Origin: Bacteroidales bacterium
Lineage (GTDB): Bacteria > Bacteroidota > Bacteroidia > Bacteroidales > F082
Direction: 5' to 3'
Assembly: GCA_017561025.1 (NCBI GenBank)
Contig: JAFZDU010000074.1
Location: 7,603 to 71,602 of the forward strand
DNA length: 64,000 nucleotides
A model generated the notes under the pieces. The model searched no databases and was not told the origin of the DNA. It saw nothing but the letters and a program-made list of their open reading frames with translations. A program made the position numbers and the translations under genes. This document shows, one piece after another, positions 5,139 to 61,133 of the stretch (positions within the stretch are counted from its first letter, which is position 1; each line of letters starts with the position of its first letter).

Positions 5139-5169
5139 GCTTTGAACCGTTGGACCTTAAGGCTTAAAC
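5137..5169. repeat. Word run (GCTTTGAAC..CCTTAAGGCTTAAAC) between convergent genes
   Basis: Spans the gap between the DUF368 stop and the queH stop. Units resemble those at 53772-53800. Confidence 0.5.
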
Positions 5170-5174
5170 TAATT

Positions 5175-12753: not shown

Positions 12754-12789
12754 AGAACCTCGGAATCTTTTTCTGGGGTTCTTTTTTTT
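12754..12789 (+). terminator. Intrinsic terminator after hydC
   Basis: AGAACC..GGTTCT imperfect stem followed by T8. Confidence 0.5.
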
Positions 12790-12816
12790 GTTCAGGAATT
12801 CAGGAGTTCAGGAGTT
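12790..12816. repeat. Octamer word run GTTCAGGA ATTCAGGA GTTCAGGA
   Basis: Directly follows the hydC terminator. Confidence 0.8.
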
Positions 12817-12826
12817 TGTGGTGTTC

Positions 12827-14750: not shown

Positions 14751-14768
14751 TAAGAACTATTATAAAAC

Positions 14769-31780: not shown

Positions 31781-31799
31781 TAAGAGATTTTTATAAAAA

Positions 31800-31830
31800 C
31801 TCAGAATCTCAAAATCTCAGAATCTCAGAA
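31800..31830. repeat. Octamer word run CTCAGAAT CTCAAAAT CTCAGAAT CTCAGAA
   Basis: The last unit is the 5' arm of the terminator at 31823-31852. Confidence 0.8.
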
Positions 31831-31852
31831 ATGGGGTTCTGAGATTTTTTTT
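31823..31852 (+). terminator. Intrinsic terminator after 28031-31780
   Basis: TCTCAGAA/TTCTGAGA perfect 8-bp stem followed by T8. The 5' arm is the last unit of the word run at 31800-31830. Confidence 0.75.
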
Positions 31853-32013: not shown

Positions 32014-33073
32014 AAACAAGGTTCACTTCCGGTTTAATCTCAATGCCGAATTTCTCTTTCACGCTTTCCTGTATCTTCGTCATGAGGTCGAGAATCTCTT
32101 CAGGTCTGCCGCCGCCGTAATGAACCAGCACGAGCGCCTGCTTGTCCCAGACTCCCACATGATTCTCACGGTAGCCTTTCCATCCCGACTTGTCGATGAG
32201 CCATCCAGCAGGAATCTTCACTCCATTGTCGTTAGGATATGAAGGCACTTCAGGATATGTCTCTTTGATGCTTTGATATTTGTCGACATCGACGATAGGA
32301 TTCTGGAAGAAACTGCCGACGCTGCCAACGACACCTACTTCGGGCAATTTCTCCGCGCGTATCGTCTTGATCGCACTGGCGACGTCATATAGAGTAGGGG
32401 ATTCTATGTTTTTCTTGGAAAGATAATCTTTGATATTGCCATATTCCAACTTCAACTCAGCATTTCTCTTTAGTCTGAAGTCGATGGCGTAGATGAAATA
32501 TTTCTTGTTCTCTTCCTTCTTGAATATGCTGTTACGATAGGCGAACTCGCATTCTTCGTTGTCGAAGACGCGTTCCTCGCCGCTTTCAATGTCGATGGTA
32601 TAAACCTTTGTGATGCAGTCTTTCACCTCGCTGCCGTATGCGCCGATGTTCTGGACAGGAGCAGCACCCACGCTGCCAGGGATGTCGACGAGATTCTCTA
32701 ATCCGTAGAGATTGTTGCTAACAGTGAAATCAACGAAATCCTTCCAAACCTCACCCGACATGCACCTTACGGTAAGGAATTGAGGAATTGAGGAATTGAG
32801 GAATTGAGGAAATTCTTTATCCGTTGACTGTTGACCATCAACAAAAGTAATTCCTTTTAAATTGGAGTGTATTACTACTCCGTCAAAGTATTCTTCAGTG
32901 AAAAGAATGTTGCTTCCGCCTCCAAGGAAAAGTTTCTTAGATTCTTTAAATGTCTTGTCATCAATGAGTTTTTTTATGTCGTCCAATGAATTGACTTCGC
33001 AGAAATATTTTGCGATAACATTGAATCCCATTGTGTTTAAACCTTGAAGAGAATAATCTTTTTTCATCTGCAT
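32012..33073 (-). CDS. murB: UDP-N-acetylenolpyruvoylglucosamine reductase MurB
   Basis: LNTMGFNVIAKYF...LFLGGGSNILF...IPGSVGAAPVQNIGAYG...YRNSIFK. Start set to ATG 33073 (or 33067) because a TAATTTTG -7 box (33083-33090, minus) lies downstream of the ORF-track start at 33115. Contains an in-frame (AGGAATTG)x4 run. Confidence 0.88.
   Translation of the reverse strand: MQMKKDYSLQGLNTMGFNVIAKYFCEVNSLDDIKKLIDDKTFKESKKLFLGGGSNILFTEEYFDGVVIHSNLKGITFVDGQQSTDKEFPQFLNSSIPQFLTVRCMSGEVWKDFVDFTVSNNLYGLENLVDIPGSVGAAPVQNIGAYGSEVKDCITKVYTIDIESGEERVFDNEECEFAYRNSIFKKEENKKYFIYAIDFRLKRNAELKLEYGNIKDYLSKKNIESPTLYDVASAIKTIRAEKLPEVGVVGSVGSFFQNPIVDVDKYQSIKETYPEVPSYPNDNGVKIPAGWLIDKSGWKGYRENHVGVWDKQALVLVHYGGGRPEEILDLMTKIQESVKEKFGIEIKPEVNLV
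32775..32811 (-). repeat. Perfect (AGGAATTG)x4 + AGGAA octamer array inside murB
   Basis: Four exact 8-nt units, translated on the minus strand as PQFLNSSIPQFL. Confidence 0.95.
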
Positions 33074-33153: not shown

Positions 33154-34269
33154 TTGAAACGTGTTATTGTATCAGTTATCAACGATTTAGTGACAGACCA
33201 GAGAGTCAATAAGTCGTGCCTTACACTTCAGAAAGCAGGATTCGAGGTGTTGTTGGTAGGTCGTAAGCAGAAGAAAAGTCCCGAAATGGATGAGCGTCCC
33301 TATCGTTCTCATCGCATGAGACTTATATTCGAAAAGGGTCCGCTTTTCTACGCGGAATATAATATCAGATTGTTTTTCTTCCTTATGTTCCATCGCGCCG
33401 ACTGCTTCTTGTCGAACGACCTAGACACTTTGCTGCCTTCTTTTTTAGTATCTAAGATAAAGAGAAAGAAACTCATCTACGACAGTCACGAATATTTCAC
33501 CGAGGTGCCTGAACTCGTAAGTCGTCCTAAGGTGCAGAAAGTGTGGCGTAGGATAGAAGAGTTCGTCTTGCCTAAGATGAAGGAGATGATAACAGTGAAT
33601 GAATCTATCGCGAATCTTTTCAGAGAGAAATACGGCATTAAGGTTCATATCATAAGAAACATCCCAATGCGCAAGATGCTGCCGGAACCTTCAACGCGTG
33701 AGAGACTGAATCTCCCTGACGACAAGCATATCCTCATTCTTCAAGGTTCTGGAATCAATATCCACAGAGGTTCAGAGGAACTCGTCGATGCTATGCAGTA
33801 TCTCGACGATTGTATATTGTTGATAATAGGTGGCGGCGACGTGCTTCCAATCTTGAAGAAAACGGTGGCAGAACGTCATCACGAAGACAGAGTGCGTTTC
33901 TATCCTCGCATGCCTTATAAAGACATGATGGCGATAACACGTCTCGCTGAGGTGGGCTTCACTCTCGATAAACCTAACAACCTCAACTATCTCTTCAGTC
34001 TGCCGAATAAGTTGTTCGACTACATACAAGCTAATGTCCCGATCATAGCATCGCATCTTCCTGAGATAGAAAGGATAATAAAAGATTATAACATCGGCAC
34101 ATTCGTCGACGACCATAATCCTCAGCATATTGCAGAGAAAATCAAGGAAGTGCTTTCTGATGAAAATACCTTGAAAACTTGGAAAAATAATCTTAACTTC
34201 GCAGCTCAAGAATTATGTTGGGAAAACGAAGAAAAAACTTTGATTAAAATATATGAGCAATACATCTGA
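33154..34269 (+). CDS. Glycosyltransferase (GT4-like)
   Basis: 371 aa with a GT-B C-terminal half (ILQGSGINIHRGSEELVDAM...LLIIGGGD...EVGFTLDKP...PNKLFDYIQANVPIIAS). TTG start at 33154. An in-frame stop at 33124 leaves no upstream ATG. Confidence 0.7.
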   Translation: MKRVIVSVINDLVTDQRVNKSCLTLQKAGFEVLLVGRKQKKSPEMDERPYRSHRMRLIFEKGPLFYAEYNIRLFFFLMFHRADCFLSNDLDTLLPSFLVSKIKRKKLIYDSHEYFTEVPELVSRPKVQKVWRRIEEFVLPKMKEMITVNESIANLFREKYGIKVHIIRNIPMRKMLPEPSTRERLNLPDDKHILILQGSGINIHRGSEELVDAMQYLDDCILLIIGGGDVLPILKKTVAERHHEDRVRFYPRMPYKDMMAITRLAEVGFTLDKPNNLNYLFSLPNKLFDYIQANVPIIASHLPEIERIIKDYNIGTFVDDHNPQHIAEKIKEVLSDENTLKTWKNNLNFAAQELCWENEEKTLIKIYEQYI

Positions 34270-35377
34270 TAAACATTTGCATATCGTAAGTTTCGATATT
34301 CCTTATCCTGCCAACTACGGCGGCGTTATTGACGTCTTCTTTAGAATTAAGGCGCTCTCGGAACGTGGTGTTAAAATTCATTTGCATTGTTTCGAATACG
34401 GACGCGAACACTCAGAATATCTTGAGAGGTTCTGCTACTCTGTAAATTATTATAAGAGAGAGACTAAACTGACAAAACTCTTTAATTCAATTCCTTATAT
34501 CGTTTGCTCCCGCGATTCTGAGGAGTTGCTAGAAAATCTCAAGAAAGACGACTATCCTATTTTGCTCGAAGGTCTGCATTGCTGTATGTTGCTTACCTGT
34601 GACGACTTGAAGGATAGAAATGTGATAGTGAGAGCTCATAATGTTGAACATGATTATTATGAACATCTTGCAAAGGTAGAAGTCGATTCAAAGAAGAAAT
34701 TATACCTCAAACAGGAAGTCGATAAACTCAGAAATTTCGAGTGTATCTTGAATAAGGCGAGCGCTATATTGGCGATTTCACAGAAAGACTACGAATATTT
34801 CTCTGAGAAATATAATAATGTATATAAGGTCACAGCATACAACGCTTATACTGAAGTCGACATCTTGGAAGGAAGCAGCGACTATGTCTTATATCATGGC
34901 AATCTGTCAGTGGCAGAGAATTATAGAGCTGCTGAAATACTTATTGAGACATTCGAGAATTTTGATGTCAAGTTGAAGATTGCTGGCATGAACCCTCCGC
35001 CTCATATCGTGAAACTTATTGAAGATGTGCCGAATATTGAACTTATCGATAGTCCTAGCGATCAGGTCTTGTTCGATCTTATACGTCATGCTCATATCAA
35101 TATCCTTGTGACAGAACAGGCTACTGGTCTTAAGTTGAAATTGCTGAACACTCTCTTCAATGGTCGATTCTGTCTCGTCAACGACAAGATGGTCGAAGGT
35201 CTGGATGTCAATGGATTATGTTATATCGTCAACGATTCAAATGCTATACGATTTGCTGTCAGTGAGCTTATGCCTCGTTCTTTCGATAAGCATCAGATAG
35301 AACGTCGTAGAAAGAATATGAAACATTTCTATGATATCGAAGAGGCGACAGATTTGTTGTTGAAGTTGATAGAGTAG
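34253..35377 (+). CDS. Glycosyltransferase-like protein (GT1/GT4-type fold)
   Basis: 374 aa. N-terminus LHIVSFDIPYPANYGGVIDVF. Overlaps the upstream GT by 17 nt (operon). The family call is weak and made from memory. Confidence 0.55.
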   Translation: MSNTSDKHLHIVSFDIPYPANYGGVIDVFFRIKALSERGVKIHLHCFEYGREHSEYLERFCYSVNYYKRETKLTKLFNSIPYIVCSRDSEELLENLKKDDYPILLEGLHCCMLLTCDDLKDRNVIVRAHNVEHDYYEHLAKVEVDSKKKLYLKQEVDKLRNFECILNKASAILAISQKDYEYFSEKYNNVYKVTAYNAYTEVDILEGSSDYVLYHGNLSVAENYRAAEILIETFENFDVKLKIAGMNPPPHIVKLIEDVPNIELIDSPSDQVLFDLIRHAHINILVTEQATGLKLKLLNTLFNGRFCLVNDKMVEGLDVNGLCYIVNDSNAIRFAVSELMPRSFDKHQIERRRKNMKHFYDIEEATDLLLKLIE

Positions 35378-35385
35378 GGGTAGGA

Positions 35386-35419
35386 GCATTATGCATTGTG
35401 AATTATGAATTATGAAATT
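35386..35419. repeat. Word run GCATTATG CATTGTG AATTATG AATTATG AAATT containing the methyltransferase start codon
   Basis: ATG 35412 is part of the last unit. Confidence 0.8.
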
Positions 35420-36992
35420 AAACAAGGTCTCAACTAAAAGTGCTGCCGAGCAACTGAATGTCTCTGTTGTAAGTATTCATAACTGGATTAAGGAAGGTAT
35501 CCTGAAAACCACCGACAATCGCATAACTCAGGAATCTCTCGAAGAGTTTAAGAGAGAGTATCTCAATAATAACAAACTTTCAGCTCGCGCGAACAAGCAA
35601 TATAAAGAGTCGCACAATCATAAGTCGTTGACAGAAGAGATAAAGAAAGATCTGAAGTCTTCTATGTCGGGCGACGAACTTTCTACAAAATACGAGTCTT
35701 CATTATCAGATTCATATAAAAATAAAGAAGGAATTTATTACACGCCTCAATATATAGTTGAGGATATGTTAAAATCTATTGACATTACGGAAGACAAAAT
35801 CTTCTTGGATCCTTGTTGTGGTTCGGGTAACTTCATCATAGAGGCTATAAGAAAAGGTGTCTCTCCAGAGAATGTCTATGGCTTTGATACTGATGAGAAT
35901 GCTGTCGCAATAACAAAGAAACGCATTAAAGAAATAAGCGGTTACGAAAGCAAAAATATCATCTGTGGAGACTTCTTAAACCAACAGCCAACAATCAACG
36001 GTCAACAGTTCGATTATATTTTTACAAATCCGCCTTGGGGAAAGAAAATCAATAAGGTGGATAAAATCAGATATTCTTCTTTATATAATTCAGGAAATAG
36101 CACCGACACATCGGCATTGTTTTACTTTGCCTGTTTGAATGTGTTAAAAAAAGATGGCAAGATTGGAATGTTATTACCTGATTCATTCTTTAACATAAGT
36201 TCGTTTGAAAACGCTCGTAAGTCGTTGATGACATTACAGATAAATCGTTTCGTCGATTATGGCAATGCATTCAAAGGACTGATGACCAAGGCGATGGCAT
36301 TTGTAGCTACAAATGGCGAATGGCAAAAGTCTGATGACAAAAGCTTTATAGAATGCGTGATTTATAATGTTAATAAACATTTACGTTCGCAGGAGAGTTT
36401 TGGTGATATACCTAAATGTATCTTTAATTTTCATATTGAAGAAAGTGAAAGCGATATAATACGTCGTGTATTTTCTGTGCCGCATATCAGGTTGAAAGAC
36501 AATGCGAAGTGGGGACTAGGTGTCATTACGGGAAACAACGAGAAAATCTGTAGGAAAGAGAAAGCCGTTGGTTGTGTTCCAATATATAGAGGTAAGGATA
36601 TTATGAAGAATGCCTTGGCAGAACCATCATTGTTTATAGATGAAAATCTAGAAGGATGTCGTCAGGTCGCAGACATGGAGTTGTATAAAGCTTCGGAGAA
36701 AGTGATATATCGTTTTATCTCTAATAAGATAGTCTGTTTTTATGATACAGAACAGCGATATATTTTAAACAGTGCAAACCTTTTTGTCTTGAATGAAGAT
36801 TTTCCAATATCATATTCGCAATTGGTTGATCTTTTGAATTCCGATTTCATGAACTGGCTTTTCAGAAGTATCTTCAATACGCACAAAATACTACGCGGCG
36901 ACTTGGAGTCATTGCCTATCTTTCACGAGTATTTTAAGAAATACGAAACCTTTTCTGAAGAAACTTTGAAGATGTATCTCTCTATCTTGTAG
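35412..36992 (+). CDS. Stand-alone gamma-class N6-adenine DNA methyltransferase (TaqI/Eco57I-like) with N-terminal HTH
   Basis: Motif I LDPCCGSGNFI precedes motif IV FTNPPWGKK. TaqI_C-like C-terminal half (IYRGKDIMKN). N-terminal LNVSVVSIHNWIKEGIL helix-turn-helix. No endonuclease gene on either side. Confidence 0.75.
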   Translation: MKLNKVSTKSAAEQLNVSVVSIHNWIKEGILKTTDNRITQESLEEFKREYLNNNKLSARANKQYKESHNHKSLTEEIKKDLKSSMSGDELSTKYESSLSDSYKNKEGIYYTPQYIVEDMLKSIDITEDKIFLDPCCGSGNFIIEAIRKGVSPENVYGFDTDENAVAITKKRIKEISGYESKNIICGDFLNQQPTINGQQFDYIFTNPPWGKKINKVDKIRYSSLYNSGNSTDTSALFYFACLNVLKKDGKIGMLLPDSFFNISSFENARKSLMTLQINRFVDYGNAFKGLMTKAMAFVATNGEWQKSDDKSFIECVIYNVNKHLRSQESFGDIPKCIFNFHIEESESDIIRRVFSVPHIRLKDNAKWGLGVITGNNEKICRKEKAVGCVPIYRGKDIMKNALAEPSLFIDENLEGCRQVADMELYKASEKVIYRFISNKIVCFYDTEQRYILNSANLFVLNEDFPISYSQLVDLLNSDFMNWLFRSIFNTHKILRGDLESLPIFHEYFKKYETFSEETLKMYLSIL

Positions 36993-37686
36993 TCTTGTAG
37001 TCTTGTTGACTTGTAGTCTTATCTATAACAGTTCCTTCATCGCATTTGATGATTCTTGATGGATATTTCAAGATGAGGTTATAGTTGTGTGTCGCCATGA
37101 AGATTGTTCTGCCTTTTGTGCAGATGTCGCGAAGCAGATCCATGATGTCGTTGGTGGTTTCAGGGTCGAGGTTGCCGGTAGGCTCGTCGGCCAAGATGAG
37201 AGCCGGGTCGTTGAGTAGCGCTCTTGCTATGGCGATGCTCTGCTGCTCGCCGCCCGACAACTGATGAGGCATAGATTTACGTTTGTTTGGAAGTCCCACT
37301 TGTTCCAGCACCTCGTCTATCCTTTTTGACATGGCAGACTTGTCTTTCCATCCAGTAGCGTCTAGCACGAAATAAAGATTGTCTTCTACGTTTCTGTCAT
37401 AAAGAAGCTGGAAGTCTTGAAACACTATGCCTATCTTTCTTCTGAGCATCGGGATGTCGCGTTTCTTTATCGTGCGGAGATTGTAGTCGGCGATGTTGAT
37501 ATCACCTTCTTTGGCAGGCAGGTCTGCATATAATGTCTTGAGAAGAGATGACTTGCCACTTCCTGTTCTTCCTATTAGATATACGAATTCGCCCTCTTCA
37601 ATTTCGAAGTTGACATCTTTCAACACGCAGTTATTGTGCTGAAATATGGAGGCATTCTTTAATGATATGACGCTTTTTGAATTCAT
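36982..37686 (-). CDS. ftsE: Cell-division ABC ATPase FtsE-like
   Basis: Walker A GRTGSGKSSLL, signature LSGGEQQ and Walker B LILADEPTGNLD. The last ~13 codons (DKTTSQQDYKTTR) are encoded by an octamer repeat run. Confidence 0.8.
   Translation of the reverse strand: MNSKSVISLKNASIFQHNNCVLKDVNFEIEEGEFVYLIGRTGSGKSSLLKTLYADLPAKEGDINIADYNLRTIKKRDIPMLRRKIGIVFQDFQLLYDRNVEDNLYFVLDATGWKDKSAMSKRIDEVLEQVGLPNKRKSMPHQLSGGEQQSIAIARALLNDPALILADEPTGNLDPETTNDIMDLLRDICTKGRTIFMATHNYNLILKYPSRIIKCDEGTVIDKTTSQQDYKTTR
36985..37021. repeat. Octamer word run TCTTGTAG x2, TCTTGTTG, ACTTGTAG, TCTTA
   Basis: Contains the stop codons of both convergent genes (methyltransferase TAG 36990-36992, ftsE TAG 36982-36984 on the minus strand). 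Confidence 0.9.
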
Positions 37687-37712
37687 AATTTACAATTCAT
37701 AATTCATAATGC
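37681..37712. repeat. Word run of ATTCATAA-type units around the ftsE start codon
   Basis: Reverse complement of the GAATTATG family seen at 35386 and 52857. Confidence 0.75.
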
Positions 37713-37726
37713 AAATATATAAAAAA

Positions 37727-38896: not shown

Positions 38897-38905
38897 AAAT
38901 TTTTT

Positions 38906-38943
38906 AATTCCTCAAATCCTCAATTCCTTAAATCCTCAGATTC
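38906..38943. repeat. Word run abutting the stop of 38943-39377
   Basis: Minus strand GAATCTGAGGATTTAAGGAATTGAGGATTTGAGGAATT, with stop triplets spaced 8 nt apart that cover all three frames. Confidence 0.85.
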
Positions 38944-42001: not shown

Positions 42002-42096
42002 ATCTGTATATTTTTAAAGTTATTATTTTTTTCTGACATTCGCGATGTCAAACAATATGCCACGAAGGTGTCACTGACAAAATGACTTTTTAAAAT

Positions 42097-42125
42097 GTCT
42101 AAAGGCTAAAGACCAAAGTCTAAGG
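42097..42125. repeat. Word run GTCTAAAG GCTAAAGA CCAAAGTCTAAGG
   Basis: xxCTAAAG family, in the htpG upstream region. Confidence 0.75.
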
Positions 42126-42196
42126 TTTTTTGAAACCAATATACACTAAAATCTGCCTTTTACACTTTAAAGCTATTCTAAATTTTAACAACAAAA

Positions 42197-42344
42197 CTTT
42201 AGTCATTTGTCTTTTGACTTTTGTCATTAGTCAATTTCTTTGGGCGTTCCGGCTTTGCCGTCGGGCTTTCCGCTATATCTTTGCTTGCTCCGTTATCACT
42301 CCGCTCGCAAAGGATGCCGCTCCAATCCCTAACGCATTGGGGCG
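42197..42344 (+). repeat. Left arm of a ~150-bp inverted repeat (word run + GC-rich element)
   Basis: The blocks TTTGGGCGTTCCGGCT, CCGTCGGGCTTTCCGCT.TATCTTTGCT.GCTCC and GCTCGCAAAGGATGCCGCTCCAATCCCTAACGCA recur reverse-complemented at 44692-44836. Confidence 0.9.
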
Positions 42345-42461
42345 ATGAGTAACAAACTGCGAGCCTTGAGCAAGAGAACTGAAGCTGTTAAAAAAAAATT
42401 CTTAAACTTATAATTTCAATTGATAATTTTTCTATATTCGTAGCATTAAAAATTTACAATT

Positions 42462-43106
42462 ATGAAGAAAATCTATTTAATTATGACGCTTTGTATGATT
42501 ATGGTGTCATGTAAGCCAGATGGTGGTAATGGAAGACATGAAGATCATGAATATGTTGACCTCGGTTTAAGCGTAAAATGGGCTACATGTAATGTTGGAG
42601 CGAAATCGCCAGAAGGCTATGGACTATATTTTGCTTGGGGTGAGACAACTACAAAATCAGAGTACAATTCATCTAACTGCCCTATCTACGGACTTAGTGT
42701 GTCGGAGTTGCAATCACAAGAATATATAGATAGCGTGGGCAATCTTATGCCACAATATGATGCCGCTACAGCCAACTGGGGCGGTGATTGGAGAATGCCG
42801 ACAAGAACAGAACAAGAAGAATTATTGGATAACTGCACATGGAGTTGGGTGTCGCAAAACGGAGTTAATGGTTATAAGGTGACATCTAAGGTAAACGGTA
42901 ATAGTATTTATTTGCCTGCTGCTGGGTTTCGTGACGGGTCATTGCTTTTCAGCGATGGATATATAGGCCAATACTGGAGTTCTTCGCCTCTTGAAACCAA
43001 TCATTATGGTGCTTTTATGTTGTATTTTTATAGTGATGTTCAGCGTATGGATGGAAGTTATCGCGTTCTTGGTCAAAGCGTTCGTCCTGTCCTAGAAGAA
43101 AAGTAG
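42462..43106 (+). CDS. Small lipoprotein with DUF1566/Fib_succ_major-type domain
   Basis: Lipobox MVSC. YVDLGLSVKWATCNVGA...FAWGE...YDAATANWGGDWRMPTRTEQEELL...YWSSSP...GQSVRPV. Paralogous to the C-terminus of 2381-4003. Confidence 0.7.
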   Translation: MKKIYLIMTLCMIMVSCKPDGGNGRHEDHEYVDLGLSVKWATCNVGAKSPEGYGLYFAWGETTTKSEYNSSNCPIYGLSVSELQSQEYIDSVGNLMPQYDAATANWGGDWRMPTRTEQEELLDNCTWSWVSQNGVNGYKVTSKVNGNSIYLPAAGFRDGSLLFSDGYIGQYWSSSPLETNHYGAFMLYFYSDVQRMDGSYRVLGQSVRPVLEEK

Positions 43107-43154
43107 AGACATATCAGAATTCGTTTGAAAATAAGAATTTTGTTGCGTCTTTTG
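43107..43154 (+). terminator. Imperfect AGAC...GCGTCT hairpin directly after the stop of 42462-43106
   Basis: 16 paired positions (12 Watson-Crick, 2 U-G, 2 mismatches) followed by TTTT. Confidence 0.4.
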
Positions 43155-43187
43155 CATAATCTTTTTAAATGCACTTTCGACTAAAAT

Positions 43188-43243
43188 TCCCTCATTGAGT
43201 GATGAAAATATTAAAATCAAGCACTCATTGAGGGATTTTTTTT
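43188..43243 (+). terminator. Second terminator after 42462-43106
   Basis: TCCCTCATTGAGTG...CACTCATTGAGGGA (one central mismatch) followed by T8. Confidence 0.65.
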
Positions 43244-43252
43244 GTTCAAAAC

Positions 43253-43318
43253 CAGTCCCGTTAGGGACGTCAGACCATAGGCAGGCGGTGGAGCGCGTAG
43301 CTCGCCTGTGAAAAAAGA
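43253..43318 (-). repeat. CCTAACGG hairpin element, copy 2, plus adjacent GC-rich hairpin
   Basis: GTCCC-GTTA-GGGAC hairpin and CAGGCG..GAGC-GCGTA-GCTC-GCCTG hairpin. Confidence 0.65.
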
Positions 43319-43354
43319 TTCGTTTTGATAGAATGAATCTTCGCTGTTTTTTAC

Positions 43355-43362
43355 TATGTTTG
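43355..43362 (+). promoter_or_regulatory. -7 box TATGTTTG for the methyltransferase gene
   Basis: Exact match 72 nt upstream of ATG 43434. The predicted leader contains the word run at 43374-43406. Confidence 0.4.
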
Positions 43363-43373
43363 CAAATTGAAAA

Positions 43374-43406
43374 GTCTAATGGTTAAAGGCAAAAGACTAA
43401 AGTCTG
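43374..43406. repeat. Word run GTCTAATG GTTAAAGG CAAAAGACTAAAGTCTG
   Basis: xxCTAAAG family, in the methyltransferase leader. Confidence 0.75.
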
Positions 43407-43433
43407 TTAGTCGTTGACAAAAAAAATCGAATT

Positions 43434-44687
43434 ATGCAAAATTTCATAGATAAACTACAATCATCATTAAAAGAAGGTTCATTTGTAAAACTGACGTTGT
43501 CAAAACCAGTAGGGACGCGATTAATCGCATACGTAGGGACGCGATTAATCGCGTCCGTACAAGGACAATCAATAGAAGAATTACGTAACGTCTACGTGAA
43601 ACCTATCATCCTCAAAAACGAGAAGATGTATTCTTTCACATATCGTTACGAGAGAAGAGACGAGACCAAGAACTATGACGCTGAGCAGACTCTTGAGGTA
43701 ATCACGGAATTGCTTTCTGGAATATTTCTCAATGCTTCGTTGTTCACTCTTACTGAAGACGTCACTCTTCTCGTGAGCAAGAAAGGCAAGGCTACTGTCA
43801 TGTGCAAGGCTGTCAAGGAACAGAGAGAGCAGAACGTGCAGCACGACAAAGTCAAGAATCGTCTGATAAATACGGATAATCCTTGGTGGTTTAAGTTAGG
43901 TCTGACAACACGCGAAGGCAAGGTCACTGCTGACATGCAGCATAAGTTCAAGCAGATTTGCAAATATGTCGAGATTGTTGACGGCGTGATGAAGAACGTG
44001 AAGTTCGATGGCAAGATCCGCATCGCCGACATGGGAGCAGGGAAAGGTTATCTCACTTTTGCCTTATATGAATATCTCACACAGAAATGCAAATACGACA
44101 TCATGATGGAAGGCGTGGAGATACGTCCTGACTTAGTCGTTAAAATCAACGAGATAATAAAAGAATCAAATTTGAAAGACTTTCGTTTTGTGGAAAGTAG
44201 TATAGAATCCTTCGGATGTGGATGTCAACAGACAATGCCAAAGGTTCAAAGTTCAGAGTTCAAAGTTCAAAGTCAATTAGATGTCCTCATCGCTCTTCAT
44301 GCATGCAACACTGCCACCGACGATGCTATTATAAAAGGTATAAAGTCTGGGGCTAAGTTAATCATCTGCGCTCCTTGTTGTCACAAGCAGATCCGTCAGG
44401 AGATGGAGAAGTCGAAAGTCGTTGATCCTATCACACGTTACGGCATCTTCCTGGAACGTCAGGCGGTGATGATTACTGATGCGATACGGGCCTTGATAAT
44501 GGAATATTACGGTTACAAGACACAGGTGATGGAGTTCATCGAGATGGAACATACTCCTAAAAACATATTGCTCGTTGGAAGAAAGAGCGATGCACCGGTC
44601 GATAAAGAATCCATTTTGAAGCAGATAGAAGAATTGAAGAAACAATACGGAATAGAGAGACATTATCTGGAGAGAATCTTTGATTAA
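43434..44687 (+). CDS. Class I SAM-dependent methyltransferase (Methyltransf_32-like)
   Basis: SAM motif IADMGAGKGYLTFALY and LIALHACNTATDDAI. Carries two in-frame repeat insertions (43509-43556 and 44243-44274). Confidence 0.7.
   Translation: MQNFIDKLQSSLKEGSFVKLTLSKPVGTRLIAYVGTRLIASVQGQSIEELRNVYVKPIILKNEKMYSFTYRYERRDETKNYDAEQTLEVITELLSGIFLNASLFTLTEDVTLLVSKKGKATVMCKAVKEQREQNVQHDKVKNRLINTDNPWWFKLGLTTREGKVTADMQHKFKQICKYVEIVDGVMKNVKFDGKIRIADMGAGKGYLTFALYEYLTQKCKYDIMMEGVEIRPDLVVKINEIIKESNLKDFRFVESSIESFGCGCQQTMPKVQSSEFKVQSQLDVLIALHACNTATDDAIIKGIKSGAKLIICAPCCHKQIRQEMEKSKVVDPITRYGIFLERQAVMITDAIRALIMEYYGYKTQVMEFIEMEHTPKNILLVGRKSDAPVDKESILKQIEELKKQYGIERHYLERIFD
43509..43556 (+). repeat. In-frame 24-nt tandem duplication carrying a 20-nt perfect palindrome, inside the methyltransferase CDS
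   Basis: GTAGGGACGCGATTAATCGCATAC / GTAGGGACGCGATTAATCGCGTCC. The palindrome GGACGCGATTAATCGCGTCC spans 43537-43556. Encodes VGTRLIAY/VGTRLIAS. Confidence 0.9.
44243..44274 (+). repeat. In-frame GTTCAAAG word run inside the methyltransferase CDS
   Basis: GGTTCAAA GTTCAGA GTTCAAA GTTCAAAGTC. The 17-mer at 44258-44274 is the reverse complement of intergenic 61027-61043. Confidence 0.85.
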
Positions 44688-44691
44688 CTTT

Positions 44692-44836
44692 CCCCTTTGC
44701 GTTAGGGATTGGAGCGGCATCCTTTGCGAGCGGAGCGAGCAAAGATAGAGCGGAAAGCCCGACGGCGGAGCTGAAGGCGTAGCCGGAACGCCCAAAAAAA
44801 GACTAAAGACTAATGACAAAAGCCGAAAGACTAAAG
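44692..44836 (-). repeat. Right arm of the ~150-bp inverted repeat
   Basis: See 42197-44344. Starts 5 nt after the methyltransferase stop. Followed by further word units at 44845-44883. Confidence 0.9.
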
Positions 44837-46214: not shown

Positions 46215-47972
46215 ATGAAAAAATTTACTTTCTTAATGTGTGCAGTATTGGCTTGCTTACTTCAAGTTAATGCACAACAATTCGTTTCTACAGAAGTACA
46301 AAATAGAAACGCAATGATCGAAGAATTTACAGGAAGAAACTGCGGTTACTGTCCAGACGGTCACGTTATCGCTAACTCAATCGTTCATGCTAACCCAGGT
46401 AGAGTATGGGCAGTTAACGTTCACGCAGGTGGATACGCTCCAACATCATACCCTAACTTCAACACAGGCGTTAGTACAACAATCTGCAACGGTTTCCAAG
46501 TAACAGGTTTCCCAGCTGGCGTTGTTAACCGTTCAACAGCACAAGCTCAAGGCCGTGGTTCATGGCAATCATTAACAAACCAACAACTTTCACAAGTTGC
46601 TGAATGTAACGTAGCTGGTCAAGTTGTTATTAACCCTGTAACACGTCTCGCAAAAATCACTGTTGAGGTTTACTATACAGCTAACAGCGCTTCAGATAAA
46701 AACTACCTCACAATATATATGTTGCAAGACAGTATCTGGGGTTCACAATCAGGCGGCAGCTCAAACCCTGAACAATATGTAGGTGGTAACTACTGCCACA
46801 TGCACATCCTCCGCGATGCTATCACAGCTGACTGGGGTGATGAAATTGCTCCAACAACAGCAGGTACTTTAATCACAAAAGAATACGTTTACGAAATCCC
46901 AGCTTCAATCGGTTCACCAAACGGCGTTGAAGTTGACCTCGAAAATATTGCATTCCTCGCTTTTGTAGAAGAAAAACAACAAGGCGCAACATACCGTCCT
47001 ATTCTCAACGTTAACGAATTAACAATGACACAAGGTACAGAAGAAGCTATCTATCCAATCATCGCTAACGTAGCAGCAGCTTCAGGTTTCTCATGTTCAA
47101 CAACAAGAACTTTAAAACTCGACCTCGTTAATGGCGGTTTAGATGAATTGACATCTCTCAAATATCAAGTTAAAGTTGCTGACAACGAGCCAATCGAATT
47201 CACATGGGAAGGCAGCATCGCTTCATACCAAAGCTCATCAATCGAAGTCGATGTTGAAATTCCTTTCGGTTCACACGATGTTGAAGTTAAGATCGTTGAA
47301 GCTAACGGTACAGCATACGAATTTGCTAAAGAAGCTACAATCAAGAGCGAAGAATGGGTAAATGTTGCTATCGAAGGTGAAACAGAAGAACTTTCAATCG
47401 AAATTATGCAAGATAAATACGGCAACCAAATCACATGGCAACTCCTTGCTTCAGACAACACAGTTATCGCTGAAGGCGGTCCTTACCAAATGTTAGTCGG
47501 TGGTTCAGCTGCTACACAATTACACATCCAAAAAGCTACAGTTAACAAAGGTGACTGCGTTAAATTCGTTATCAAAGACAACGTAGGTAACGGTATCTGC
47601 TGCAGCTTCGGTGAAGGTTACTACCAAATCAAAGACAGCAAAGACAATATCGTTGTTGATGGCGACGGCGACTTCGGTTCAGAAGCATCAGCATTATTGT
47701 CAATCGGTGATGGCGTTGCTGTTGAAGAAATTGAAACAGTTGAAACATTAAATATCTTCCCTAACCCTGTAAAAGACGTTCTTACAGTTAAAGGTGAAAA
47801 CATGAGCCAAGTTGTTATCTGCAACGCTTTAGGTCAAGTTGTTGAATCAATCAACACAAACGACAGCGAAGTTAGAGTTAACGTAAGCGCATTCCAAAAC
47901 GGTATGTATTTCATCAACGTTATCGATAACAACGGTGTTATGACAACAACAAAAGTATCAGTTTTACATTGA
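46215..47972 (+). CDS. T9SS-sorted Omp28-like CxxC protein (modules A-B-C-CTD)
   Basis: MIEEFTGRNCGYCPDGH, IMQDKYGNQITW...GNGICCSFGEGYYQI and IFPNPVKDVLTV...GMYFINV. Confidence 0.78.
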   Translation: MKKFTFLMCAVLACLLQVNAQQFVSTEVQNRNAMIEEFTGRNCGYCPDGHVIANSIVHANPGRVWAVNVHAGGYAPTSYPNFNTGVSTTICNGFQVTGFPAGVVNRSTAQAQGRGSWQSLTNQQLSQVAECNVAGQVVINPVTRLAKITVEVYYTANSASDKNYLTIYMLQDSIWGSQSGGSSNPEQYVGGNYCHMHILRDAITADWGDEIAPTTAGTLITKEYVYEIPASIGSPNGVEVDLENIAFLAFVEEKQQGATYRPILNVNELTMTQGTEEAIYPIIANVAAASGFSCSTTRTLKLDLVNGGLDELTSLKYQVKVADNEPIEFTWEGSIASYQSSSIEVDVEIPFGSHDVEVKIVEANGTAYEFAKEATIKSEEWVNVAIEGETEELSIEIMQDKYGNQITWQLLASDNTVIAEGGPYQMLVGGSAATQLHIQKATVNKGDCVKFVIKDNVGNGICCSFGEGYYQIKDSKDNIVVDGDGDFGSEASALLSIGDGVAVEEIETVETLNIFPNPVKDVLTVKGENMSQVVICNALGQVVESINTNDSEVRVNVSAFQNGMYFINVIDNNGVMTTTKVSVLH

Positions 47973-47992
47973 TATTTCCATAAATAAATAAT

Positions 47993-48025
47993 GAGACGTT
48001 GCTTTTAGCAGCGTCTCTTTTTTTT
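47993..48025 (+). terminator. Intrinsic terminator after 46215-47972 (GAGACGU-stem family)
   Basis: GAGACGTTGC-TTTTA-GCAGCGTCTC (one U-G) followed by T8. Confidence 0.8.
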
Positions 48026-48044
48026 CATAATAAATCTAAACCAA

Positions 48045-51000
48045 ATGAAAAAACTTACTTTCTTAATGCTGACTGTCTTAGTTTGCTTGTTGCAAGTCAA
48101 TGCTCAGCAGTTCGTTTCTACAGAAGTACAAAATAGAAACGCTATCATTGAAGAATTCACAGGAAGAAATTGCGGATACTGCCCTGATGGTCACGTTATC
48201 GCTAACTCAATCGTTCACGCTAACCCAGGTAGAGTATGGGCAGTTAATGTCCATGCCGGCGGTTACGCTCCAACATCTTATCCTAACTTCAATACAGATG
48301 TCACCAATACTATCATGAACGGTTTTAGTGTTACCAGTTTCCCTTCAGGCGTTGTTAACCGTTCAACGGCAACAGCTCAAGGTCGCGGTTCATGGCAATC
48401 ATTAACAACACAGCAACTTTCTCAAACAGCAGAATGTAACGTTGGCGGTCAAGCTATCATCAATCCTCTTACACGCACAGCAAAGATCAACGTTGAAGTA
48501 TATTATACATCAAACAGCGCTTCTTCAACAAACTATCTCACAATAGTTATGTTGCAAGATAGTATCTGGGGCTCACAGTCAGGCGGCAGCTCAAACCCTG
48601 ATCAATATGTAGGTGGTCAATATTGCCACATGCACATCCTCCGCGATGCAATCACTGCTGACTGGGGCGACCAAATCTCTCCAACAACAGCAGGTACTTT
48701 GATCTCAAAAGAATATATGTACCAAATCCCTGAATCAATAGGTTCTCCTAATGGTGTTGCAGTCGACCTCGATAATATCATTTTCTTAGCTTATGTATCA
48801 GAAAAATATCAAGGAACACCAACACGTGCTATCCTCAACGTAAACGAGTTGAACACAATGCAAGGCTCAGAAGAAGACTTGTATCCTTATATCACAAACG
48901 TAGCTCCAACAACATCTATCTCATGTTCAACAACAAAGACAATGAAGATAGATTTAGTCAACGGCGGTTTGCAAACTCTTACATCATTGAAGTTACAAGC
49001 AAAGGTTGGTAATTCACAACCTGTTGAATTCGATTGGAATGGTAATGTTCCTTCTTATGGATTGTTCTCAATTGAAAAAGATCTCAACGTTCCTTTCGGA
49101 TCACATATCGTAGAAGTTAAAATCATTCAAGCAAACGGCACTGCATTCGAGTTTTCAAAAGAAACAGTAATCGATAGCGAAGAATGGACTGAAGTTCAAA
49201 TCGATGGCGAGAAAGAAGAACTCACAATCAATATCATGCAAGATAAATATGGCAACCAAACCACATGGGAACTCATTGCATCAGACTACAGCGTTATCGC
49301 TTCTGGTGGACCTTACACAATGTTGGTAGGCGGTTCAACAGCAACACAATTACATACTGAAAAAGCAACAGTAAATAGCGGCGACTGTGTCAAATTCGTT
49401 ATTAAAGACAATATTGGCAATGGCATCTGCTGCCAATACGGTGAAGGCTACTATCAAATCAAAGATAGCAAAGGTAACATACTTGTTGATGGCGACGGCG
49501 CATTCGGTTCAGAAGCATCTGTTCTTTTGTCAATCCAAGGTAATGATGACGGAGAAGACGATGGTGATGATGATGACGATGACAACAACGGCGAAGTTAA
49601 CGCAGATTATGTTTCAACAACACCACAAAACAGAAACCTTCTCATCGAAGAGTTCACAGGAAGAAACTGTCCTAACTGCCCAGCAGGTCATATCATCTCA
49701 AGCGGCATCACACATGACAATCCTGGAAGAGCATGGAGCATGGGTATCCACTCAGGTTATTTCGCTGTGACAACATATCCTAACTTCAATACAGATATCA
49801 GTGCTATCTTCACTGATCCTTACGATGATGTTCAAGGCGGTCTCGGTTATCCTGCTGCTGTTTTGAACCGTTCAACAGAAGAAGCATTGGGAAGAGGCTA
49901 CTGGGAAGCAGCTGCTGCTGAACAACTCCAAATCGCTGCTGAATGTAATGTAGGCGGTCATGTCACTATCGACCCTATCACTCGCAAGGCTTATATCACA
50001 ACAGAAGTTTACTACACAGCAAACAGCGCTGAGTCAACAAACTATCTCACTATCGTTATGTTGCAAGATAGTATCGCTGGTCAGCAAGCATACGGTCATA
50101 CTAACCCTGCTCAAGATCTCGGCGATGACATGTATTGCCACATGCACGTCCTCCGCGATGTCGTTACTTCTTCATGGGGTGATGCTATAACTCCTACAAC
50201 AGAAGGTTCTTTGGTTAAGAAGACTTACGAATATAGCATTCCAGAAATCATCGGCGACCCTAACGGCGTGACCGTTGATTTGGATAATATCTACTTCATC
50301 GCTTTTGTTACTGAGAAATATCAAGGCATGCCAACACGTCCAATCTTGAATGTTAACAAATTATCACAAGAACAATCGACAGGCATGGCAGTGTCACCTT
50401 ATATCTCAGACCTCGTAATGGAAGAAGGCGTATTCTGCGCTAACTCAAGAACATTCAAAAACTACGTTAAGAACGTCGGTTCTTCAGCACTCACATCAAT
50501 GAAGTTTGAAGTTAAAACTGCTGACGGTAATGTAGTTGAACATTCATGGGAAGGCAACATCGCTCCCGATGCAACAGAACGTATCGACATCACTTTAGAT
50601 ATTCCTTTCGGCAACAACGAAATAGATTTCAATATCGTTGAGGCTAACGCTCAATCTCATGACTATACTAAATCTGTTATGGCTCTCTGCGATGAATGGG
50701 ATGAATATGATACAGGTTGTATAGAAGAAATACCATTGACAATTGAAATCATGCAAGATAAATATGGTAACCATACAACATGGGAGTTCATGTCATCAGA
50801 TAACACAGTCTTAGCTTCAGGCGGTCCTTACAGCTATTTGCCTAACGCTAATTCAGAATTACATACTTACACAGTTAATGTTATGGAAGACTGTTATAAA
50901 TTCGTTATTTATGACAGCTATGGCAATGGTATCTGCTGCGGTGAAGATGGCGACGGATATTACAGAATCCTTGACGAAGGCGGCAATATCGTCGTCGATG

Positions 51001-51308
51001 GTAACGGCGAATTCGAAGACATCGCTTACAGCATTCTTTCAGTCAAGACATCAGGATCTGTTAACGATGTGATTGCATCTGCATATAATATTTATCCTAA
51101 CCCAGCAAAAGATATGATAACAGTGAAAGGTGCAAATATGAGCCAAATCAAGGTTTACAATGCCTTAGGTCAGATGGTTAAAGCTATAGACTGCGACGCA
51201 AATGAAATGAATATCAGTGTTAATAACTTGCAAAATGGAATCTATTTCATCAATATCACAAATGATAAAGGTGAAATGACAACGAGCAAAGTCTCAATTC
51301 AACATTGA
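48045..51308 (+). CDS. T9SS-sorted fusion of two Omp28-like units (A-B-C-acidic linker-A-B-C-CTD)
   Basis: First unit is ~85% identical to 46215-47972 at its N-terminus. Linker GNDDGEDDGDDDDDDNNGE. Second unit restarts at YVSTTPQNRNLLIEEFTGRNCPNCPAGH with no signal peptide. Single C-terminal domain IYPNPAKDMITV...GIYFINI. Confidence 0.8.
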   Translation: MKKLTFLMLTVLVCLLQVNAQQFVSTEVQNRNAIIEEFTGRNCGYCPDGHVIANSIVHANPGRVWAVNVHAGGYAPTSYPNFNTDVTNTIMNGFSVTSFPSGVVNRSTATAQGRGSWQSLTTQQLSQTAECNVGGQAIINPLTRTAKINVEVYYTSNSASSTNYLTIVMLQDSIWGSQSGGSSNPDQYVGGQYCHMHILRDAITADWGDQISPTTAGTLISKEYMYQIPESIGSPNGVAVDLDNIIFLAYVSEKYQGTPTRAILNVNELNTMQGSEEDLYPYITNVAPTTSISCSTTKTMKIDLVNGGLQTLTSLKLQAKVGNSQPVEFDWNGNVPSYGLFSIEKDLNVPFGSHIVEVKIIQANGTAFEFSKETVIDSEEWTEVQIDGEKEELTINIMQDKYGNQTTWELIASDYSVIASGGPYTMLVGGSTATQLHTEKATVNSGDCVKFVIKDNIGNGICCQYGEGYYQIKDSKGNILVDGDGAFGSEASVLLSIQGNDDGEDDGDDDDDDNNGEVNADYVSTTPQNRNLLIEEFTGRNCPNCPAGHIISSGITHDNPGRAWSMGIHSGYFAVTTYPNFNTDISAIFTDPYDDVQGGLGYPAAVLNRSTEEALGRGYWEAAAAEQLQIAAECNVGGHVTIDPITRKAYITTEVYYTANSAESTNYLTIVMLQDSIAGQQAYGHTNPAQDLGDDMYCHMHVLRDVVTSSWGDAITPTTEGSLVKKTYEYSIPEIIGDPNGVTVDLDNIYFIAFVTEKYQGMPTRPILNVNKLSQEQSTGMAVSPYISDLVMEEGVFCANSRTFKNYVKNVGSSALTSMKFEVKTADGNVVEHSWEGNIAPDATERIDITLDIPFGNNEIDFNIVEANAQSHDYTKSVMALCDEWDEYDTGCIEEIPLTIEIMQDKYGNHTTWEFMSSDNTVLASGGPYSYLPNANSELHTYTVNVMEDCYKFVIYDSYGNGICCGEDGDGYYRILDEGGNIVVDGNGEFEDIAYSILSVKTSGSVNDVIASAYNIYPNPAKDMITVKGANMSQIKVYNALGQMVKAIDCDANEMNISVNNLQNGIYFINITNDKGEMTTSKVSIQH

Positions 51309-51380: not shown

Positions 51381-51411
51381 AAGAGACGCAAAGACACAGA
51401 GACGCAGAGAC
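51381..51411. repeat. Word run AAGAGACGCA AAGACACA GAGACGCA GAGAC
   Basis: Lies downstream of the ion-channel gene stop (minus strand). Confidence 0.6.
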
Positions 51412-51420
51412 TGTTGTTCT

Positions 51421-52804: not shown

Positions 52805-52857
52805 AGACGCATCAATGTGTGTTTATTTTAATAGGAATCATTGATACGTCTCTACAA
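52805..52857 (-). repeat. Hairpin element H4
   Basis: AGACGCATCAATG-21 nt-CATTGATACGTCT + CTACAA. About 85% identical to H2, including the loop, with one compensatory pair change. Confidence 0.85.
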
Positions 52858-52882
52858 TTATGCATTATGAATTATGAATTAC
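52857..52882. repeat. Word run ATTATGC ATTATGA ATTATGA ATTAC overlapping the pyrF stop
   Basis: GAATTATG family. On the pyrF strand the order is stop, run, then H4. Confidence 0.8.
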
Positions 52883-53688
52883 AAAAACGCTGCCATTTGT
52901 TCTTGTAATTTCTTTGCTTCATCAGCTGCTTTTTCTGCGAAGTCTTGTTCTTTTGAAGCGTAGATGATGCCTCTTGATGAGTTGACCAACAAACCGCATT
53001 CTTTGTTGAGACCGAATTTAGCTACTGCTGCCAAGTCGCCGCCTTGTGCTCCAACGCCAGGAACCAAGAAGAAGTGATTTGGCAACATCTGTCTGATTTC
53101 GCCTAATTCTTCAGGGTGTGTTGCGCCAACAACGTACATCATCTTGCTGTCGTCAGCCCATGTGCTTGACTTAGCGAGAACTTCTTTGTAAAGTTCACGA
53201 CCTTCAATGTTGAGGTATTGGAAATCTTTTGAACCTTTGTTTGAAGTGAGTGCTAACAAGATAACCCATTTGTCTTCGAAGCCTAAGAATGGTTCTACTG
53301 AATCTAACCCCATGTAAGGAGCTACTGTGATAGCGTCGCTGCTCATTGATTCGAAGAATGCTCTTGCGTAGTTAGCTGATGTGTTGCCGATATCGCCTCT
53401 CTTAGCGTCAGCGATGACGAAAATCTCAGGATAGTTAGCTTTGATGTATTTTATTGTCTTGTCCAAGCTTTCCCAGCCTTTAGCGCCGTATACTTCGTAG
53501 AAAGCAGTGTTAGGTTTGTAAGCTACTGTATATTGAGCTGTTGCATCGATGATTTGCTTGTTGAATTCGAAGACTGGATCTTCACATTCTAAAAGATGTT
53601 GAGGAATCTTGTTGATGTCGGTGTCTAAACCAACGCAAAGGAATGATTTCTTTGCAAATATCTGTTCTACTAATTGTTGTTTGTTCAT
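52879..53688 (-). CDS. pyrF: Orotidine 5'-phosphate decarboxylase
   Basis: 269 aa with LCVGLDTD and [13 protein letters not shown] (type 2 PyrF). Confidence 0.9.
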
Positions 53689-53699
53689 GGTATTATATT

Positions 53700-53800
53700 T
53701 TAGTTTAAAGTTTATGGTTTAAAGTGGTTTTAAAGTTGATAGTTTAAAGTTATTAAGTTTATAAAATTCAACCTTAAACCTTAAGCTTTAAGCCTTAAAC
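53700..53800. repeat. ~100-nt word palindrome between prfA and pyrF
   Basis: The left half has four (G)GTTTAAAG-type units. The right half has CCTTAAAC/CTTTAAGC units, which are their reverse complements. Confidence 0.8.
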
Positions 53801-58603: not shown

Positions 58604-58631
58604 TGAAAAAAAATGATATGATTTTAAAAAT

Positions 58632-58664
58632 AATGAGGAATTAGGAGTTAGGAATTAGGAATGA
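58632..58664. repeat. Word run AATGAGGAATTAGGAGTTAGGAATTAGGAATGA
   Basis: GAATTAGG family. Shares a 15-mer with the rimO insertion. Confidence 0.8.
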
Positions 58665-58704
58665 TTTTTTTGAGCCATTCACCATTAAAGTAGTGCTATA
58701 ATCA

Positions 58705-61026: not shown

Positions 61027-61064
61027 GACTTTGAACTTTGAACTGTTGTCTGTTGTCTGTTGTC
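61027..61064. repeat. Word runs (GACTTTGAA CTTTGAAC)(TGTTGTC x3)
   Basis: Distal to the secDF terminator. Confidence 0.85.
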
Positions 61065-61096
61065 AAAAAAAAGAGCCCCTGAAAATCAGGAGCTCT
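61065..61096 (-). terminator. Intrinsic terminator after secDF
   Basis: Minus strand AGAGCTCCTGA-TTT-TCAGGGGCTCT (one U-G) followed by T8. Confidence 0.75.
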
Positions 61097-61101
61097 CTCA
61101 A

Positions 61102-61133
61102 CTTTAGCCATTAGCCATTAGCCATTAGCCAAT
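61102..61133. repeat. Octamer run (CCATTAGC)x3.5 abutting the secDF stop
   Basis: On the secDF strand TAA is followed by TTGGCTAATGGCTAATGGCTAATGGCTAAAG. Confidence 0.9.

Follow-up and report, generated by a model that had tools for sequence, protein, structure and literature searches.

Oppositely oriented Flavo-1-class repeats at a strain-variable gene slot in a gut Bacteroidales genome

Introduction

Flavo-1 (Rfam RF01705) is a computationally defined motif of the Bacteroidetes whose function is not known (Weinberg et al. 2010, PMC2864571), and in Flavobacterium psychrophilum its matches lie sense or antisense to transcribed regions, with many of them untranscribed (PMC9723704). Here we describe two oppositely oriented Flavo-1-class units in a 64-kb window (the whole stretch of DNA analyzed, 64,000 nucleotides [nt] of contig JAFZDU010000074.1 from a Bacteroidales bacterium of the F082 lineage), where they form the arms of an imperfect inverted repeat, at 42197-42344 and 44692-44836, around a lipoprotein-like gene and a methyltransferase gene. 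The initial annotation of this DNA offered three readings of the arrangement: two opposite copies of a dispersed repeat, a cassette that can invert by recombination, or the remnant ends of a non-autonomous mobile unit. We favor the first, and put at about 85% the probability that the arms are separate copies of a structured repeat, dispersed through intergenic DNA of the Bacteroidetes and with Flavo-1 at its core, the two facing opposite ways and having no joint behavior.

Other classes of short repeat also bear on the locus. Repetitive extragenic palindromes (REPs) are single hairpins of 20 to 40 nt with a GTAG tag (PMC2817692, PMC3733652), and a 2013 survey of GTAG repeats does not list the Bacteroidetes. 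Intergenic arrays of heptamers are described yet unexplained in some bacteria, a few Bacteroidetes included (PMC4679880), and we found no description in the literature consulted of a link between such arrays and a Flavo-1-class unit.

Results

Both arms belong to the Flavo-1 family

At the curated cut-off, an Rfam scan of the window returned Flavo-1 as its sole match, at 42255-42348 on the minus strand (44.0 bits, with a gathering cut-off for RF01705 of 42 bits). A permissive scan placed the right arm in the same family at 44694-44768 on the plus strand (41.5 bits, E 1e-6, full model), 0.5 bit under the cut-off. Both arms align to 76 of the 76 positions of the model, and they are Flavo-1 family members, one at the cut-off and the other just under it. 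Scored with our own covariance model, R1, the left Flavo-1-class unit, with stems P0 and P1 and hairpin P2, spans 42237-42341 on the minus strand (105.2 bits), and the right unit spans 44693-44798 on the plus strand (105.1 bits), its outer stem starting 11 nt past the methyltransferase stop codon. Neither Rfam nor blastn nor our covariance model found a further core copy in the 64-kb window beyond the two arms.

Aligned and oriented copies share a common order: GCGTT, A, GGGATTGGAGCGGCATCCTTT, a variable tip, AAAGATATAGCGGAAAGCCC, GA, CGGC, a variable loop, GCCG, G, AACGC, and CCAAA. The unit is 81 to 215 nt long and is closed by a 5-bp outer stem, P0 (GCGTT/AACGC, replaced by GCGTG/CACGC and GCGCC/GGCGC in other lineages), which encloses the long Flavo-1 stem P1, with its conserved AGCGG internal loops and variable tip, together with the small CGGC/GCCG hairpin P2. 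RNAalifold applied to 49 copies gave essentially the same fold as the hand-written one. Across 94 copies, standard pairs fill 97.1% of cells, compared with 37 to 48% when the 3' partners are slid by one to three columns; double changes occur at 12 pairs, and none of 500 shuffles reached the observed values. Each of the eight pairs in helix 4 has double changes, and pairing reaches 98 to 99% in helices 2 and 3. As modeled in this alignment, the 94 copies share a three-helix fold with strong covariation.

The geometry originally described for the inverted repeat is largely accurate. Within the window, blastn aligns 42197-42344 with 44836-44692 at 76.6% identity over 158 columns (E 4e-31), which bears out the reverse-complementary arms, and a global alignment of the two has 122 identical columns of 160; a repeat search of the window recovers them as four colinear inverted blocks (I1 to I4). 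The block sizes were roughly right: the 16-nt block stands, a perfect block given as 34 nt is 38 nt long, and one given as 36 nt with two mismatches is 29 nt with one (perfect stretches of 18 and 10 nt with a single mismatch between). The arms are also richer in GC than their surroundings, as had been stated, with cores at 57 to 60%, flanking spacers at 19 to 32%, and a window mean of 40.6%. Two small open reading frames (ORFs), 42130-42348 on the plus strand and 44557-44742 on the minus strand, are present and both contain PLAKDAAPIPNA; they are a by-product of the repeat, in line with their description as spurious.

The unit is a dispersed, mostly intergenic repeat

We scanned one genome per species with the 18-nt word AGCGGAAAGCCCGACGGC, which is common to both arms, and copy figures refer to the matches listed. 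Among these, further copies of the GC-rich element occupy more than 111 loci, mostly in metagenome-assembled genomes (MAGs) of uncultured Bacteroidales from the guts of ruminants and other animals, where a single MAG can have the element on several contigs, and in some Flavobacterium and Lentimicrobiaceae. Of 88 Bacteroidales copies, 85 are intergenic. Neighboring genes are co-oriented with the unit at about 2:1 (48:24 on the 5' side and 55:29 on the 3' side), and copies frequently lie 12 to 60 nt from a co-oriented stop codon or within tens of nucleotides of the 3' end of a gene. The flanks of the units are mosaics of other short modules, GTAG-tagged hairpins included, and the genomes carry separate GTAG-tagged hairpins beside the Flavo-1-class units. 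At other loci with two units within 8 kb, all five of five have them in direct orientation.

The 372 ORFs within 2.5 kb of copies are housekeeping genes and orthologous neighbors only, without a common function, and no recurrent transposase, reverse transcriptase, nuclease, or other enzyme is present among them. Direct repeats between the 5' and 3' flanks, as a target-site duplication would leave, occur only at the permuted level; the 5-bp closing stem is the only terminal inverted repeat seen, with a slight excess of 4- to 5-nt complementarity beyond it. We also considered a phage-borne repeat and rejected it, since the core word matches only 4 times in 2.9 million viral contigs.

Each unit could instead be an independent small-RNA (sRNA) gene, the inverted layout being simply two such genes. 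In favor are the conserved, covarying fold, the excess of G-U over A-C pairs, and the type label that Rfam gives to Flavo-1, "Gene; sRNA." However, the TAnnTTTG box of Bacteroidetes promoters is not conserved upstream of the units (6 of 84 copies, at scattered positions) and a terminator-like T-run follows only 16 of 87, so the unit is not a stand-alone gene. The high copy number, the mosaic flanks, and the F. psychrophilum matches that are sense or antisense and often untranscribed likewise speak against it, and we regard two sRNA genes as an improbable explanation. A scan for sigma-70 promoters and simple terminators, which is ill-suited to Bacteroidetes, gave counts at chance. A promoter on the reverse strand of the unit, where TATCTTTG resembles the Bacteroidetes -7 box, was set aside as well: by eye there is no -33 TTTG at the right spacing, and the orientation statistics do not fit.

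The two arms are not partners

The core sequences of the arms are 76% identical to each other, whereas the right arm is 94.7% identical to a copy in L093 and the left arm is 93.7% identical to those in L012 and L035 (L numbers denote the loci compared). Foreign copies are closer than the partner arm in 39 of 60 comparisons for the right arm and 46 of 60 for the left, and the two arms belong to different sub-variants. The reading of the arms as two opposite copies of a dispersed repeat is thus upheld by the high copy number of the family, by its match to Flavo-1, and by the closeness of foreign copies. The possibility that the right arm is a local duplicate of the left was rejected, since for either arm the majority of foreign copies are more similar than the other arm is.

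The arms also segregate independently among strains. Eight distinct contigs of the species carry both arms, in the same orientation in all. Four sister-strain contigs (L122 to L125), with a methyltransferase ∼100% identical, have the right arm only; L006 (methyltransferase 94% identical, with the same lipoprotein gene) and L005 have the left arm only, L004 has a truncated left arm, and L003 has neither. The right unit is missing at the orthologous site in L006, L005, L004, and L003, and a unit upstream of htpG is common to L005, L006, and L067. The two window units are separate acquisitions: an old left one, which other species also have upstream of htpG, and a right one confined to the species. 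Strains that lack the htpG-proximal or the methyltransferase-distal unit keep the neighboring genes intact. Divergent genes flank the left unit, which is ∼240 nt upstream of htpG on one side and ∼125 nt away from the lipoprotein start on the other, and the arms point in opposite directions because each follows the local gene direction, that of its outward neighbor, at this divergent junction.

An invertible cassette, in which homologous or site-specific recombination between the arms would flip the 2.3-kb segment and so alter expression of the lipoprotein or the methyltransferase, is hard to reconcile with these distributions. The arms are inverted and have the 38-nt perfect block in common, and the enclosed genes would retain their own upstream regions after a flip. 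Nevertheless, the arms are just 76% identical, with indels, they occur singly in related strains, and the other close pairs of the repeat are in direct orientation. No inverted state is present in any assembly, and every contig that shows the region has one gene order and arm orientation (8 of 8 contigs with both arms and all 13 that carry the lipoprotein gene in the same context). The window contains no recombinase or transposase domain among its 38 ORFs of at least 100 amino acids (aa), 34 of them scanned with Pfam and 4 covered by precomputed hits at the identical locus L001, in agreement with the initial annotation. Contigs from JGI metagenomes match neither the inverted junction nor the normal junction used as a control; the species is not there, and these data are uninformative on inversion. 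With the synteny of the methyltransferase fixed in addition, we consider inversion highly improbable.

One of the enclosed genes lies in a strain-variable slot

The arms enclose two plus-strand genes, as had been noted, at 42462-43106 and 43434-44687. The first is lipoprotein-like, as proposed, although its Lcl_C/DUF1566 match is weak (28 bits, under the Pfam cut-off of 34.9); the second codes for an S-adenosylmethionine-dependent methyltransferase (Methyltransf_32, Pfam). The order htpG, slot, methyltransferase, ilvE is kept in all relatives, with or without arms, so the methyltransferase is core synteny and not cassette cargo. Comparison with L123 shows that the strain-variable segment is 42092-43186, with breakpoints read from the sequences to within about 2 nt, and that it comprises a word run, the left unit, and the lipoprotein gene. 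Sister strains have a D12 Dam-like methylase and a 361-aa ORF in its place (L123, 828-3252), possibly a restriction-modification pair, and in more distant relatives the slot is occupied by an IS200-like Y1 transposase gene or by an 83-aa ORF. Word arrays are present at the left breakpoint in both slot types, in the window as a period-7 run at the left edge of the segment (42094-42125, plus strand, repeat search D1-D3). On the other side, a hairpin with a T8 terminator (43188-43243, plus strand), common to strains with different slot cargo, and everything rightward of it are shared by both strain types. The two enclosed genes are not a unit, and the piece that varies between strains is 42092-43186, exchanged for other cargo. 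Neither the lipoprotein gene, the methyltransferase, nor the alternative cargo genes have a match in NCBIfam. Here the core genes are conserved and the slot between them varies by strain, which makes the locus a clean example of its kind.

The third original reading, that of a non-autonomous mobile unit or composite transposon remnant with the arms as terminal inverted repeats and the two genes as cargo, has the expected inverted repeat-cargo-inverted repeat geometry, and the htpG-methyltransferase interval does vary between strains. A synteny comparison thus does find presence/absence polymorphism, but it is bounded by 42092 and 43186, a segment that includes one arm and is not delimited by the arms. 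Moreover, the methyltransferase lies between htpG and ilvE in every relative regardless of arms, all four arm combinations are seen (right-only and left-only genomes among them), the family leaves no target-site duplication, and the arms come from different sub-variants. We therefore hold out very little prospect that the arms are the ends of a mobile element.

The enclosed genes had been credited with their own promoters and terminators. This could be verified only in part: the hairpin and T8 end the lipoprotein gene, and the methyltransferase has no terminator ahead of the right arm. The right unit begins 11 nt past the stop codon, and no terminator intervenes; judged from the sequence, the methyltransferase mRNA probably includes it at its 3' end. 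Co-transcribed in this manner, the fold could delay decay from that end. The left unit, for its part, is probably silent and outside any defined transcript.

It is conceivable that the unit is a cis-acting RNA module serving the neighboring gene, a domesticated regulatory module instead of selfish DNA, with the right unit acting as a 3' untranslated region stabilizer or processing site for the methyltransferase and the left unit as an upstream element of htpG. The position of the right unit so close to an unterminated stop codon, the many copies near co-oriented stop codons, and the htpG-proximal unit common to L005, L006, and L067 are all consistent with such a role, and REPs behave in this way in other bacteria (PMC3733652). 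However, one-third of copies are oriented oppositely to their neighbors, sister strains lack one unit or the other with the neighboring genes intact, and those neighbors lack a common function. We thus see a cis-acting role as an unlikely though credible alternative, and one that is compatible with each arm being a separate copy of a dispersed repeat.

Word arrays accompany the units

A run of xxCTAAAG words on the outer side of each arm had been recorded, and period-7 A-rich runs are indeed present directly 3' of the left unit (42197-42233, minus strand, block I3) and directly 3' of the right unit (44797-44836, plus strand, D1-D3 and I3). This run is a family-wide companion of the unit and is not private to the arm pair. 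Among the flanks of units, 54% on the 3' side and 16% on the 5' side contain an array with a period of 7 or 8 nt, compared with baselines of 10.8% of 70-nt windows in unit-free spacers and 0.7% of coding windows, a five-fold enrichment just 3' of the Flavo-1-class unit. Periods beside units are 7 and 8 only; a period of 10 appears in 2 of 64 baseline windows. Recent paralogous copies (L014, L021, L032, and L093) share their array. At orthologous loci of related MAGs, the first 30 to 150 nt 3' of the unit are unalignable while the core and the distal flank align, and the turnover of the arrays is therefore much faster than that of the adjacent sequence; such pairs include L049/L096, L045/L082, L087/L101, L005/window, and L022/L093, among others.

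A more speculative proposal is that the Flavo-1 core and its 3' word array together constitute one mobile or self-copying unit of an undescribed kind. An enzyme would recognize the folded single strand, and copying would seed or target the fast-changing word arrays, such that units and arrays would be the junctions at which Bacteroidales strains swap small gene cargoes; the exchange of the lipoprotein gene for the putative restriction-modification genes, with its left edge at a word array, would be an example. We consider this doubtful. If true, the orphan Flavo-1 motif would gain a role and the origin of intergenic heptamer arrays would be explained.

Other repeats and genes in the window

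Direct-repeat arrays of 7- or 8-nt words number 17 across the window: ∼4.8 kb of spacer contains 13, coding sequence contains the other 4, and the word differs in nearly every array. A period-7 run just upstream of the methyltransferase start (43371-43402, plus strand, D1) has no adjoining Flavo-1 unit. Other arrays are at 1370-1408, 2340-2374, 12788-12820, 31795-31833, 32770-32816, 35385-35419, and 36983-37020, and at 37680-37715, 38904-38938, 51382-51412, 52854-52886, 53766-53800, 58631-58665, and 61028-61136.

The two repeat insertions reported inside the methyltransferase gene are real and fall in two loops that are length-variable among homologs. The first, at 43509-43560 (plus strand, repeat search D4, I5, and I11), comprises two in-frame copies of a GTAG-tagged palindromic repeat, and the second, at 44240-44277 (plus strand, D7), is an in-frame period-7 run of the GTTCAAA type. 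Among methyltransferase homologs with identities above 85%, length varies between 390 and 438 aa, and the differences are almost confined to these two loops (residues ∼26 to 45 and 260 to 280), which have a different repeat-derived fill in each lineage. The GTAG-tagged hairpin, GTAGGGACGCG..CGCGTCCGTAC, resembles a REP and forms the in-frame dimer at 43509-43560; hairpins of the same type are present just past the methyltransferase stop in L003 and 5' of the Flavo-1 unit in L021.

Another GC-rich repeat, GTCCCGNTAGGGACG..GGCAGG..CCTG, is found in the window at 43255-43312 and in L004 at 5037-5100 and 5800-5862. In L004, two direct copies of the GTCCCGNTAGGGACG type flank an IS200/RAYT-like Y1 transposase gene (5148-5603), which is also bracketed by inverted CTGTAGGNGCGACAG hairpins in a REPtron-like layout.

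The window also codes for many Omp28-domain paralogs that carry type IX secretion sorting tails and for two adhesin-like proteins of very large size (2955 and 1249 aa) that contain Cleaved_Adhesin domains; these Omp28-domain and adhesin-like regions (Pfam) are located at 12987-16883, 26076-27824, and 46215-51308, and also at 17146-26013 and 28031-31780. In the region 34253-36992, a TaqI-like N6 DNA methylase (35412-36992) directly follows a 374-aa ORF without a Pfam family.

Discussion

We interpret the two arms as independently acquired members of a dispersed repeat family that happen to point in opposite directions at a divergent junction. Exchange of the slot cargo would most likely proceed by recombination in the conserved flanks. 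The family may persist in the manner of REPs and the bacterial interspersed mosaic elements (BIMEs) or of the enterobacterial ERIC sequences, either because the folded single strand is recognized by a trans-acting factor or because the modules are copied by recombination.

Several points weigh against this interpretation or limit its detail. We found neither a trans-acting enzyme nor a donor copy nor a clean pair of filled and empty sites that would account for the mode of spread. The right-arm site differs from its empty relatives across the whole spacer and the last four methyltransferase codons, and to judge from the sequence it looks like a replacement by recombination rather than a clean insertion. 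Covariation was counted in an alignment that had been fitted to the model, from copies related to one another, which can inflate the counts. Folding energies of the single arms are no better than those of shuffled sequences (z -0.4 and -1.2), so the fold rests on covariation among related copies. G-U outnumbers A-C only by 12 to 6 in the pairs, and the molecule that folds may be RNA or single-stranded DNA. Finally, the 38-nt perfect block would allow rare RecA-mediated inversion, and assemblies show the majority state only.

The results remove a false lead, that of an invertible or mobile cassette, and assign both arms to a known motif, an orphan since 2010. The behavior of Flavo-1 in gut Bacteroidales is that of a mosaic repeat in multiple copies and not that of a gene.

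These units can be compared with several other repeat classes. Invertons of the Bacteroidales likewise place inverted repeats around a short segment in a gut Bacteroidales genome, but their repeats are short and near-perfect, a serine or tyrosine invertase is encoded close by, and the population contains both orientations, none of which is seen here. Miniature inverted-repeat transposable elements (MITEs) such as Correia and RUP share the small size, the lack of coding capacity, the multiple copies, and the presence/absence differences between strains, whereas the Flavo-1-class unit has no target-site duplication, and neither a terminal inverted repeat other than its 5-bp closing stem nor a related insertion sequence (IS) was seen. 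The ERIC sequences or intergenic repeat units (IRUs) of enterobacteria are imperfect palindromes of ∼100 nt or longer that have a wide taxonomic range and internal insertions at fixed points, and they occur in both orientations in transcribed spacers; they are not known to have an associated enzyme. They have no sequence relation to the unit described here, belong to another phylum, and lack an attached word array.

REPs and BIMEs share with the unit a high copy number, intergenic location, and folded structure, often just downstream of genes, and both are mosaics with other modules that occur singly or paired and in either orientation. The unit differs in its length of 81 to 215 nt, in its three helices, and in having no terminal GTAG, since it starts with GCGTT and ends with AACGCC. 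No Y1 transposase (RAYT) flanked by units was found among the 372 ORFs within 2.5 kb of copies, and the Y1 gene of L004 is flanked by other hairpins and not by Flavo-1-class units. The units thus resemble REPs and BIMEs, ERIC sequences, and MITEs in their distribution, but the defining features of REPs (a short GTAG hairpin and a RAYT), of MITEs (target-site duplication), and of invertons (a recombinase and both orientations) were not found. The word arrays have a counterpart in the TAACTGA arrays (MacGregor 2015, PMC4679880), which are also tandem 7-nt words in spacers, sometimes in frame in genes, with site-specific words; the words here are many and imperfect, have a period of 7 or 8, and are enriched 3' of the Flavo-1-class unit.

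The closest described system is Flavo-1 itself, with which the copies share the sequence and the stem with its AGCGG-type internal loops, the phylum Bacteroidetes, the length-variable tip, and the lack of a consistent gene association. Relative to the Rfam family, the copies described here come from gut Bacteroidales and not from Flavobacteria, and they add an outer closing stem and a second hairpin beyond the 76-nt model, as well as a 3' word array and 5' modules. The closing stem, the second hairpin, and the link to word arrays are additions to the Rfam Flavo-1 model that are of some use for research on repeats and orphan RNAs.

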